Shown: positions 8,560-18,962, counted from the stretch's first letter. The stretch: DNA of 64,000 nucleotides from Candidatus Levybacteria bacterium RIFCSPHIGHO2_02_FULL_40_18 (GCA_001782235.1 MFOC01000007.1:315909-379908); one strand, 5' to 3'. Numbers and translations: made by a program. The notes: generated from the sequence alone by a model not told the origin.

Positions 8560-8845
8560 TTATCCTCTTGCAAAATAAGTTTTCACATAATATATTAAAA
8601 ACGGACTCAGCTTTTCGTAGATCATCTTTTTTTGTGGCGCACTTGTTCAGCAAGGAGATGATCTGAGCTGAGTCCAACAGGTGCGCCATCTTAGATTTAG
8701 GAATACATTAAAAAAATTTTCGCGTTTTCTTTCACTTCTTTTTGTTCTCAAGTTTCCGCCGTTTTCAAAAAGGGCTTTGAAACAATCCGCGCGACCCCCC
8801 ACGCGCGGAAGATTTTTGAGCTTCCTGCAACAGACTCTCTCTGTG

Positions 8846-8916
8846 TCGGGATGTGGGGAATTGAACCCCATCCACACGCACCCCATGCGCGCATTCTACC
8901 GTTAAACTACACCCCG
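8846..8916 (-). tRNA. tRNA-Pro (anticodon GGG)
   Basis: Manual fold of the reverse complement: acceptor CGGGGTG/CATCCCG (one G-U pair), D arm GTTT-AACGGTA-GAAT, anticodon stem CGCGC/GCGTG with loop AUGGGGU (U33, anticodon GGG, G37), T arm GGGG-TTCAATT-CCCC, discriminator A. No CCA is encoded. Confidence 0.8.
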
Positions 8917-17412: not shown

Positions 17413-18315
17413 GTGAAGGCAATATTTATAGTAGGTCCAACAGCCGTTGGTAAAACGGATCTAGCATTCGGTATTTCTAAGGTTATTCCATCCATTTTAA
17501 TTTCTGCCGATTCTGTACAGGCTTACCGGGGCGCTGACATAATTTCGGGAAAAGATAAATCGGTTAAGACATATCTTCTTGATGTGGCACCCGCAACTCA
17601 GCCTTTTTCGGTCCGGGATTTTGTTGAAAATGTTCGACACATTGTTAAAAAAGCAAGGCTAGAAGGCAGAATCCCTATAGTTGTTGGGGGTACTGGTTTT
17701 TATATTGATGCGCTTTTTAGGAAAATCGATACTCTTTCTATTCCGCCTAATCAGGTTCTTCGAGAAAAACTTGAAAAATTGACTGTCAAAAAACTTCAGG
17801 AAAAATTAAAAAAACTATCCCTTGATCGCTTTCTTAAAATGAATAAGTCCGATGTTAGTAATAAAAGAAGGTTAATTCGTGCAATTGAGATAGCCCAGTC
17901 TAAGAAGCGAAACATAAAGAGCGATGAGTCAATTTTTAACCCCTCTGAAGTATTAATTATTGGGCTTAAAGCCTCGATGGACAATTTGAGAAAGCGAATT
18001 GCTGATCGCGTAGAGAAGAGGCTCGCGATAGGAGCAGTTGATGAAGCTAAAGAGTTATTTAAAGAGTACGAACATTTATCTCCCCAGCTAAAAACGGCCA
18101 ACGGATATAGGCAATTATTTGAATATCTAAAAGGAAAATTGACGTATAATGTGGCAAAAGAAGCATGGATAAATTCTGAAGTAAAAACTGCCAGGAATCA
18201 AATGACATGGCTTAAGAAGAACAAAAATATTAAATGGTTCGATATTGGCAAGAGAGATCTTGAGAGTAGAATTTCAAAGCTTATTGAAGAAGAGTTTGTG
18301 CTAGGAAGAGAGTAA
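17413..18315 (+). CDS. miaA: tRNA dimethylallyltransferase
   Basis: P-loop IVGPTAVGKTDLA followed by ISADSVQAYRGADIISGK. Confidence 0.85.
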   Translation: MKAIFIVGPTAVGKTDLAFGISKVIPSILISADSVQAYRGADIISGKDKSVKTYLLDVAPATQPFSVRDFVENVRHIVKKARLEGRIPIVVGGTGFYIDALFRKIDTLSIPPNQVLREKLEKLTVKKLQEKLKKLSLDRFLKMNKSDVSNKRRLIRAIEIAQSKKRNIKSDESIFNPSEVLIIGLKASMDNLRKRIADRVEKRLAIGAVDEAKELFKEYEHLSPQLKTANGYRQLFEYLKGKLTYNVAKEAWINSEVKTARNQMTWLKKNKNIKWFDIGKRDLESRISKLIEEEFVLGRE

Positions 18316-18684
18316 GCCAGATTCTGTTTTCTCGCCTCGATTCGAGTCGAAGCGGGTCGATTGCCATCTATCTCTGTTTCGATAAAGTGTCGAATCAGCC
18401 CCGATTTTACGGGATGCCCTAAACCTTGATGCTCCTGTAATGTAAGTAATAACGCATCAATTCGTAGGTTGCAGCGGGTAGGATTTCCCGTTTCACTTCT
18501 GCTCGTCTCTGTTGATCTCAAATCCTGTTGATTCAGAATCTGTTTCGAACCCCGTTTAGCAGAGTAAGGATCCGAAAACTAGCCATTTCTGATCGGAACT
18601 TACGTTCCATCCCCGACATTACGCCTGTCTGGACTTTCCTAGAGGTACCGTCTGGTACCCCTCGACAATCCTTCTTCCTAGCAT
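18298..18684 (-). ncRNA. rnpB: RNase P RNA (bacterial type, reduced)
   Basis: On the reverse complement: a 10-bp P1 helix (5' GCUAGGAAGA / 3' UCUUCCUAGC), a P3 hairpin (AGGGGUACC-AGAC-GGUACCUCU) directly followed by the P4 5' strand AGGAAAGUCCAGAC, and near the 3' end ACAGAAUCUGGCUUA (compare E. coli ACAGAACCCGGCUUA). The P4 strands carry compensatory changes. Roughly 390 nt are free of credible ORFs and have elevated GC. Confidence 0.75.
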
Positions 18685-18737
18685 AGTTAATTATACAACA
18701 ATGGGGGATCCGATGCAAACTATAAGCTCAATTGGTC

Positions 18738-18962
18738 TCACATTAATTCCCGAACAATGTAGTGGGTTATGTAGAGAATTACGAAACCTATTATAAAAGA
18801 AGCAGAAAATGATAATGTAGGATTTTCAGGGAAAAGATAAATATCCATTAGTCCCCACGCTCCTCTCCAAAAAGATACAACAGCAATCCCAATCCCAATA
18901 GCCATTATTAGCTTATGGTGAATTTTATATTTTATTTTATAGCGATGTGGAGACTTGGGCAT
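18738..18962 (-). CDS. small hypothetical membrane protein (2 TM)
   Basis: 74 aa with two hydrophobic helices (LIMAIGIGIAVVSFW; FIIGFVILYITHYIV). Confidence 0.4.
   Translation of the reverse strand: MPKSPHRYKIKYKIHHKLIMAIGIGIAVVSFWRGAWGLMDIYLFPENPTLSFSASFIIGFVILYITHYIVRELM

Follow-up and report, generated by a model that had tools for sequence, protein, structure and literature searches.

The 64,000-nucleotide (nt) stretch of the genome of Candidatus Levybacteria bacterium RIFCSPHIGHO2_02_FULL_40_18 considered here (GCA_001782235.1 MFOC01000007.1:315909-379908, hereafter the window) contains on its minus strand, at positions 18299-18683, what comparative sequence analysis identifies, with a probability that we put at roughly 0.9, as the functional rnpB gene of this lineage of the Candidate Phyla Radiation (CPR, or Patescibacteria; Microgenomatia). 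The product of rnpB is the RNA subunit of ribonuclease P (RNase P), the enzyme that trims the 5' leader from precursor tRNA (pre-tRNA), the RNA being the catalytic subunit. In this same reading the RNA is type-A-like, with its helix P12 replaced by a pseudoknot. The gene is placed as follows:

18299-18683, minus strand: rnpB, RNase P RNA, 385 nt, from the match to the Rfam model RF00010 together with the pairing of helix P1.

Both ends are those set by the P1 pairing, the RF00010 match itself ending at 18297 and 18681, and RNA nucleotide i corresponds to window position 18684 - i. In a permissive scan of positions 18150-18850, the minus strand aligns at 18297-18681 with positions 1-367 of the RF00010 model (RNaseP_bact_a), scoring 67.1 bits with an E-value of 3.4e-20, and this model outscores the others of its clan for the region. 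The minimum free energy (MFE) is -134.9 kcal/mol, giving z = -5.8 against dinucleotide shuffles, while the GC content is 0.45-0.47 as against 0.32-0.40 in the flanks, and the only open reading frames (ORFs) in the region are short and overlapping. An earlier examination of the window from its sequence alone (the sequence-only reading) had proposed an unannotated RNase P RNA on the minus strand beyond miaA, in a region of raised GC with short ORFs only, and the proposal is borne out, the RNA by the full-length match and by the covariation in relatives, the composition and the ORFs by the values just given.

At the default gathering thresholds, a whole-window Rfam scan has a tRNA as its sole match and leaves the RNase P RNA unreported. 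Such an outcome is unsurprising, since diverged CPR rnpB genes have already been reported by Lui et al. 2021 (PMC8172020) and a sub-threshold rnpB in Levybacteria is therefore to be expected. In that work, 10 of 35 closed CPR genomes were seemingly without an RNase P RNA until the RF00010 thresholds were lowered, whereupon exactly one diverged copy was found in each closed CPR genome. The RNAs required extensive manual refolding, many were without P13, P14, P16 and P17, two thirds lacked the L15 motif that binds CCA, and two from Microgenomatia ‘appear to be missing P12’ (PMC8172020).

The MiaA protein encoded beside the window gene is identical in sequence to one annotated in a Candidatus Levybacteria metagenome-assembled genome, the contigs being from aquifer metagenomes. 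Relatives of the window gene were gathered through MiaA homologues of 58-67% identity, which led to four contigs with an RF00010 match of 63-67 bits beside miaA; through a pattern of two invariant motifs, which gave 19 loci in species-representative genomes titled Levybacteria, Levyibacteriota or Patescibacteria; and through a second pattern (a short ACAGAGA-UGAAAC spacing plus AAUCCnACCCG), which gave 44 metagenome loci. The pooled set comprises 49 distinct RNAs of 291-473 nt. Three remoter relatives, reached by an independent route through MiaA homologues of 45-51% identity, are arranged in the same way. With RF00010, scores of 63-72 bits were obtained for eight relatives. For the full-length structure in 21 full-length relatives, 66 pairs are altered on both sides and 90.9% of the cells are paired, a share that drops to 34-48% once the 3' partners are displaced by one to three columns. 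When 47 sequences (45 distinct) are aligned by L-INS-i without regard to structure, the specificity domain comes out 95.4% paired, and 32-45% when slid. P1, P2, P3, P5 and P7-P11 occur in canonical order, each paired in more than 85% of cells, with compensatory changes in P1, P2, P3, P6, P8, P9, P11, P15 and P16; P7 does not vary at all, and P5 and P10 hardly do.

Six of the records gathered in this way (L016, L018, L020, L021, L022 and L028) are titled ‘uncultured Gammaproteobacteria bacterium’ and carry a Levybacteria-type RNase P RNA, most of them with a helicase or MiaA 47-71% identical to that of the window; they look like mislabelled CPR genomes.

The helix map was drawn from a comparative fold. 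The single-sequence MFE fold was set aside for this purpose, as it recovers P1, P3 and P8 and misfolds the specificity domain. The Rfam alignment was likewise replaced, as it places P9 and two extra hairpins, here called X and Y, in an unaligned insertion of 85 nt, forces a non-canonical P7/P8 pairing, and shrinks 28+49 model positions to 7+7 near the P12 site. The lumping of X, Y and P9 into one insertion accounts for much of the loss of score. RNAalifold, to which no structure was supplied, recovers P7, P8, P9, X and Y. The elements of the specificity domain are:

18595-18608, minus strand: P8, GGAAC-GUAA-GUUCC, 100% paired, with four of its five pairs compensated.
18581-18594, minus strand: P9, capped by a GAAA loop (GNRA), with three compensated pairs.
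18543-18577, minus strand: hairpin X, at the P10.1 position between P10 and P11, with a 10-bp stem and a 15-nt loop.
18519-18542, minus strand: hairpin Y, between X and P11, with a 9-bp stem and a conserved 6-nt loop, AAUCAA.
18482-18517, minus strand: P11, GAUC (18514-18517) with GA(AA)UC (18482-18487), enclosing J11/12, a pseudoknot strand and J12/13.
18504-18513, minus strand: J11/12, AACAGAGACG (ACAGAGA).
18488-18497, minus strand: J12/13, AGUGAAACGG (GUGAAAC).
18558-18563, minus strand: 5' strand of the pseudoknot, UCUGCU, in the loop of hairpin X.
18498-18503, minus strand: 3' strand of the pseudoknot, AGCAGA, in the J11/12-J12/13 linker, the normal site of P12.

J11/12 and J12/13 form the conserved module that recognises the tRNA elbow (T-loop/D-loop). 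ACAGAGA and UGAAAC are invariant in the 47 sequences, the metagenome part of which is biased in this respect as both motifs stand in its search pattern, and they are invariant also in 21 sequences found with a pattern that contains neither. The gap between them is 10 nt. Necessarily, therefore, no P12 hairpin is possible there, and the P12 hairpin of type A was not found between J11/12 and J12/13; between J12/13 and the 3' strand of P11 there is no sequence for either P13 or P14, which are common, albeit not universal, in type A. A vestigial P12 of 2 bp (AC...GU) that would close a kissing loop of 8 nt was considered and rejected, its closing pairs not being maintained, for example in the relatives L006 and L013. 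Ahead of P11, all 10 pairs of X and eight of the nine pairs of Y are changed on both sides among the 45 distinct sequences (91% and 98.3% paired, respectively), such that both hairpins are supported by covariation, their likening to P10.1 being by position alone. P11 itself is 98.3% paired, its two inner pairs changing on both sides in 10-11 sequences.

The loop of X and the linker of 5-6 nt at the P12 site are complementary to each other. In the L-INS-i alignment this pseudoknot is 98.7% paired, and each of its five core pairs is changed on both sides in 4-11 of the 45 sequences. Across the relatives there are 14 distinct, fully complementary combinations of strands, including CCCAC/GUGGG, CUCAC/GUGAG, CCUAC/GUAGG, CCCAU/AUGGG, UCCAC/GUGGA, CCCGC/GCGGG, CUCGC/GCGAG, UCAGCU/AGCUGA, UCUAC/GUAGA and CUCAU/AUGAG, each core position undergoing switches of the kinds A-U to U-A, C-G to U-A or G-C to A-U. 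By these comparative criteria, we consider the pairing to be established. As to what it does, in type A it is the docking of P13/P14 that holds the J11/12-J12/13 module, and in type B, as in the structure of the B. subtilis specificity domain, a contact between P10.1 and P12 buttresses this tRNA-elbow-binding module; by analogy, the pseudoknot helix would stand in both for the base of P12 and for these buttresses, shaping the J11/12-J12/13 module.

Some relatives elaborate on this arrangement. L034 and L069 (in the X loop, just 5' of the pseudoknot strand) and L054 (in the P9 loop) have extra hairpins of 20-45 nt, and the complementarity of the pseudoknot is kept in all three.

The catalytic domain, judged by its helices and conserved sequences, is that of an ordinary type A RNA, with P1-P5, the P4 and P6 pseudoknots, P15, P16 and a putative P17, and GGU in L15. 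Its elements are:

18673-18683, minus strand: 5' strand of P1, UGCUAGGAAGA, pairing with 18299-18309, with seven of 11 pairs changed on both sides.
18299-18309, minus strand: 3' strand of P1, UCUUCCUAGCA, within the final codons of miaA, a plus-strand gene.
18664-18670, minus strand: 5' strand of P2, GAUUGUC, pairing with GGCAAUC (18359-18365), with six of seven pairs changed on both sides.
18641-18662, minus strand: P3 hairpin, AGGGGUACC-AGAC-GGUACCUCU, 9 bp, with all seven outer pairs changed on both sides.
18628-18636, minus strand: 5' strand of P4, AAG(U)CCAGA with the U bulged, inside the conserved AGGAAAGUCC (18631-18640).
18313-18327, minus strand: conserved ACAGAAUCUGGCUUA, which includes the 3' strand of P4 at 18314-18321.
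18616-18622, minus strand: 5' strand of the P6 pseudoknot, GUAAUGU, pairing with ACAUUAC (18437-18443) in the P16/P17 arm.
18418-18468, minus strand: P15/P16/P17 arm, with P15 and P16 compensated in the 21 full-length sequences.
18378-18413, minus strand: two hairpins of the P18 region (18400-18413 and 18378-18394), absent in about one third of the relatives.
18331-18356, minus strand: an insertion of 26 nt at the P19 position, between the 3' strands of P2 and P4, forming an 8-bp hairpin (-11.9 kcal/mol).

Much of this had been described by the sequence-only reading. Its P3 hairpin is present, at 18662-18641, and its two P4 strands, AGGAAAGUCCAGAC (18640-18627) and ACAGAAUCUGGCUUA (18327-18313), lie where it had put them; the P1 helix is likewise in place, although 11 contiguous pairs are counted rather than 10. 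P4, the long-range helix of type A, consists of AAG(U)CCAGA with UCUGGCUU, in eight pairs that are formed and invariant in 21 of 21 sequences. The further claim that P4 carries compensatory changes holds against the Rfam type-A consensus (GUCCGGgC / ACCCGGCUUA), from which two G-C pairs have become A-U (CCAGA/UCUGG), but P4 is near-invariant within the lineage, where 46 of 49 RNAs have CCAGA/UCUGG, two have CCAGG/UCUGG with a G-U pair, and one has the compensatory CCUGA/UCAGG. Taken alone, the P4 changes would thus be weak evidence of function. P6 is more variable: all seven pairs are changed on both sides and 90.4% are paired in the same 21 sequences, so that the combination of P6 with P15/P16 by which type A is recognised is present. 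Also present are AGAUAGAUG, the sequence of J18/2, and the conserved ACAGAAnnnGGCUUA. The 26-nt insertion is lacking in the closest relative, L004, where it appears as an alignment gap.

The GGU in L15, whose role is to pair with the 3' CCA of tRNA, lies at 18423-18425 within CAAGGUUUAGG and is missing from many relatives. The only tRNA of the window, tRNA-Pro(GGG) at 8845-8916 on the minus strand, has its discriminator base followed by CAC; in other words its CCA is not encoded, although the RNase P RNA keeps the GGU with which a CCA would pair.

In L005 (3575-3590), a European Nucleotide Archive scaffold with an identical MiaA, a run of N replaces about 130 nt of rnpB and the gene is undetectable; its interpretation as a 117-nt deletion variant of the RNA was ruled out, the interruption being a scaffold gap. 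In L020 (4397-4821), rnpB contains an insertion of 68 nt between perfect 17-nt direct repeats of AAAACAGAATCTGGCTT, a repeat that spans most of the conserved ACAGAAUCUGGCUUA block and thus doubles the 3' strand of P4. A small mobile insertion may have left this trace, or it may have arisen as an artefact of assembly.

Upstream of the gene there is a candidate promoter:

18690-18719, minus strand: sigma-70-type promoter, TTGCAT, 17 nt, TATAAT, with 10 of 12 consensus matches.

The version given by the promoter tool is TTTGCA, 18 nt, TATAAT. RNA nucleotide 1, the first of P1, comes 6 nt after the end of the -10 box, and a TAnAAT box recurs in the relatives, 5-8 nt ahead of where P1 begins, whatever the strand or the neighbouring gene. 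From this promoter of its own, rnpB would give a minus-strand transcript of about 385 nt, predicted from its sequence to be the catalytic subunit of an RNase P that removes the 5' leaders of pre-tRNA, and the activity would be exerted jointly with an RnpA protein encoded beyond the window.

Several points weigh against this overall reading. The score of 67.1 bits is 33 bits short of the RF00010 gathering score of 100, which formally leaves the RNA outside the family; the cmsearch that the sequence-only reading had put forward as a check thus returns a significant full-length RNaseP_bact_a match, yet one under that score. A crude regular expression for an rnpA-like RNR motif matched nowhere in the 64-kb window, a result uninformative for the rest of the genome. 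An intrinsic terminator was not found after rnpB, so that the 3' end is placed by P1 only; presumably it results from processing. Kinship among the sequences inflates the shuffle statistics, a bias that does not extend to the slid-partner control, which preserves relatedness. The structural role given to the pseudoknot is an argument by analogy only. Moreover, two shorter relatives of 294-299 nt, L053 (2680-2973) and L068 (1520-1818), have no pseudoknot at all, their hairpin X being capped by a GAAA tetraloop and their linker reading AAAUG. The pseudoknot is therefore dispensable across the wider group, and these two RNAs are a second way of living without P12.

These points give some purchase to other explanations. 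It could be that the gene product is indeed an RNase P RNA, but one from which P12 has simply been deleted, with the complementarity of loop and linker an artefact of alignment or ancestry; L053 and L068 manage in just this way, one of the counting controls can be exceeded by related sequences that have no structure at all, and in the first MAFFT alignment (21 sequences) the pseudoknot was only 51.6% paired. This last value is explained by a one-column register shift between two classes of loop, for in a gapless, left-justified alignment of the loops the pairing rises to 80%, against 29-53% when slid, and it reaches 98.7% with L-INS-i. Given also that the slid-partner comparison retains the relatedness of the sequences, that the 14 strand pairs switch at each core position, and that the three relatives obtained independently through MiaA fit the pseudoknot too, an artefact is distinctly unlikely. 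Less probable still, indeed barely credible, is that the locus is a decaying relic of rnpB, the tRNAs being processed by a HARP-type, protein-only RNase P or by the product of a second, canonical rnpB. A score under the Rfam gathering threshold, the loss of the usually conserved P12, P13 and P14, and the reduced genomes of the CPR would all suit a relic, but a pseudogene would not keep its helices through compensatory changes in 49 relatives, nor its single-stranded segments invariant and its promoter at a fixed distance from P1, and Lui et al. describe a single diverged copy per closed CPR genome at lowered thresholds (PMC8172020). The covariation, as far as sequence comparison reaches, largely refutes a relic and favours a functional rnpB.

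The same kind of comparison bears on the overlap of rnpB with its neighbour:

17413-18315, plus strand: miaA (tRNA dimethylallyltransferase), the last 17 nt of which (18299-18315) are antisense to rnpB.

An antisense overlap of about 18 nt with the end of miaA had been noted in the sequence-only reading, and is confirmed as 17 nt by the P1 ends or 19 nt by the Rfam ends (18297). Opposite the TAA of miaA (18313-18315) stands the invariant UUA of GGCUUA, which reads as a stop on the miaA strand, and the last five codons (L, G, R, E and part of V) are antisense to the 3' strand of P1. A functional overlap, in which convergent transcription couples the levels of rnpB and miaA by antisense pairing or transcriptional interference, has a certain appeal since tRNA is the target of both gene products, the two genes lie side by side in many relatives, and the shared sequence includes the miaA stop codon. 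It is nonetheless very improbable. The overlapped MiaA residues, VLGRE, are a non-conserved tail past the conserved part of the protein. In the relatives, rnpB usually lies beside a UvrD/PD-(D/E)XK helicase gene, beside miaA, or between both, on either strand; in nine of them rnpB and miaA point the same way, 47-116 nt apart and without overlap, and among relatives with both genes adjacent the convergent order is found only in the window and L004, where the called miaA stops 55 nt short of rnpB. Nothing suggests a regulatory role of the shared sequence. Because the relatives carry rnpB on either strand, the overlap is specific to the lineage, and to judge by the arrangement of the genes it most likely arose in passing, from tight packing that followed a local inversion, and is probably incidental. 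In other words, it is of little import, showing only how tightly the genome is packed.

In this regard, the same slot between miaA and the helicase gene holds rnpB in many relatives, on opposite strands in different lineages (window 18299-18683, L006 3468-3852, L008 1451-1820, L009 3495-3810, L004 3478-3833), which looks like an in-place inversion of the small gene together with its promoter. In L004 (3380-3500), the called miaA ends at a TGA with a C-terminus, ...SNGV, common to P0005 and P0018, and the DNA past this TGA reads, in another frame, FDIGKKGFESRISKLIEEEFALGRE followed by a stop, which is the window type of MiaA C-terminus and would be a relic of an older end of miaA. Between the helicase gene and the rnpB promoter sits an ORF of 74 amino acids (18738-18962, minus strand) with two predicted hydrophobic stretches and a match to Pfam PF15993, ‘Fuseless’, found by tblastn only in the window lineage and L004. 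The Rfam model RF03531 (n00280, ‘C. difficile sRNA included into helicase gene’) matches UvrD-like helicase genes at L074 5782-5880 and L075 5175-5273, one of the two above the gathering score (66.7 vs 65.2), and at that threshold it has no match in the helicase gene of the window itself; the matches are probably to conserved helicase coding sequence and not to a small RNA.

Among known RNase P RNAs, the nearest is type A (RF00010; the M1 RNA of E. coli, Thermotoga maritima), the best-scoring Rfam model, with which the window RNA shares the helix order, namely P1-P5, the P4 pseudoknot with its bulged U, the P6 pseudoknot, P7-P11, P15, P16 and a putative P17, with GGU in L15, as well as the five conserved blocks AGGAAAGUCC, ACAGAGA, GUGAAA, AGAUAGAUG and ACAGAAnnnGGCUUA. 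It differs from type A in being without P12, P13 and P14, in having two added hairpins between P10 and P11 and a pseudoknot of loop and linker, and in that its two hairpins of the P18 region do not have GNRA loops. Type B (Bacillus) and type C (Chloroflexi) have, as here, a hairpin between P10 and P11, termed P10.1, and no P13/P14; they keep a full P12, whereas the window RNA has two hairpins at that place and a direct Watson-Crick pairing rather than the docking of a loop into a receptor. Type B, further, has P5.1, P15.1 and P15.2 and no P6, P16 or P17, while the window RNA has P6 and P15/P16, no P5.1 or P15.1, and no extra helix after P5. Type C combines P10.1 with a type-A catalytic domain, that is P6, P16 and P17 (PMC7191817).

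The closest precedents are the RNAs of Lui et al. (PMC8172020), which come from the same superphylum and class, likewise fall below the threshold, need refolding and include some that are reported to be without P12, P13 and P14. The two Microgenomatia RNAs of that work are drawn without P12, P13, P14 and P18; the window RNA differs from both in having GGU and an element in the P18 region, and in the text and legends drawn on here P12 is simply missing, with no mention of a replacing pseudoknot or of extra hairpins. The P12 hairpin is absent also from Mycoplasma fermentans and from the archaeal type T of Thermoproteaceae (PMC8172020, PMC7191817), for neither of which do the parts of these two papers used here report a replacing pseudoknot. 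Type T, moreover, retains next to nothing of the specificity domain, not even J11/12 and J12/13, unlike the window lineage, which keeps both invariant. In the open-access literature no description of a P12-replacing pseudoknot was found, an absence that is no proof of novelty. The architecture as a whole, lacking P12, P13 and P14 and possessing two extra hairpins and the pseudoknot, is common to at least 50 related sequences and appears to be undescribed, and on account of it the standard model under-scores these genes. There is perhaps an even chance that Levybacteria and their relatives hold an undescribed class of RNase P RNA, in which P12 is replaced by a pseudoknot between a loop at the P10.1 position and the J11/12-J12/13 linker.

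Were this so, the lineage would offer a compact answer to the task performed by P12 with P13/P14 in type A or with P10.1 in type B, and a clean case of a hairpin swapped for a long-range helix in the course of genome reduction. Few helices of RNase P RNA are as well conserved across all domains of life as P12, and its covarying replacement would show what is really required of it, namely a short helix with J11/12 and J12/13 on either side; a specificity domain of about 140 nt is, in this respect, a natural minimal version for structural and folding work. There is also a practical side, in that rnpB is a near-universal gene that serves as a check of genome completeness. The standard Rfam threshold misses it in this lineage, such that the genomes seem to be without an RNase P RNA, and a lineage-specific covariance model built from the present alignment would cure the missed detection.

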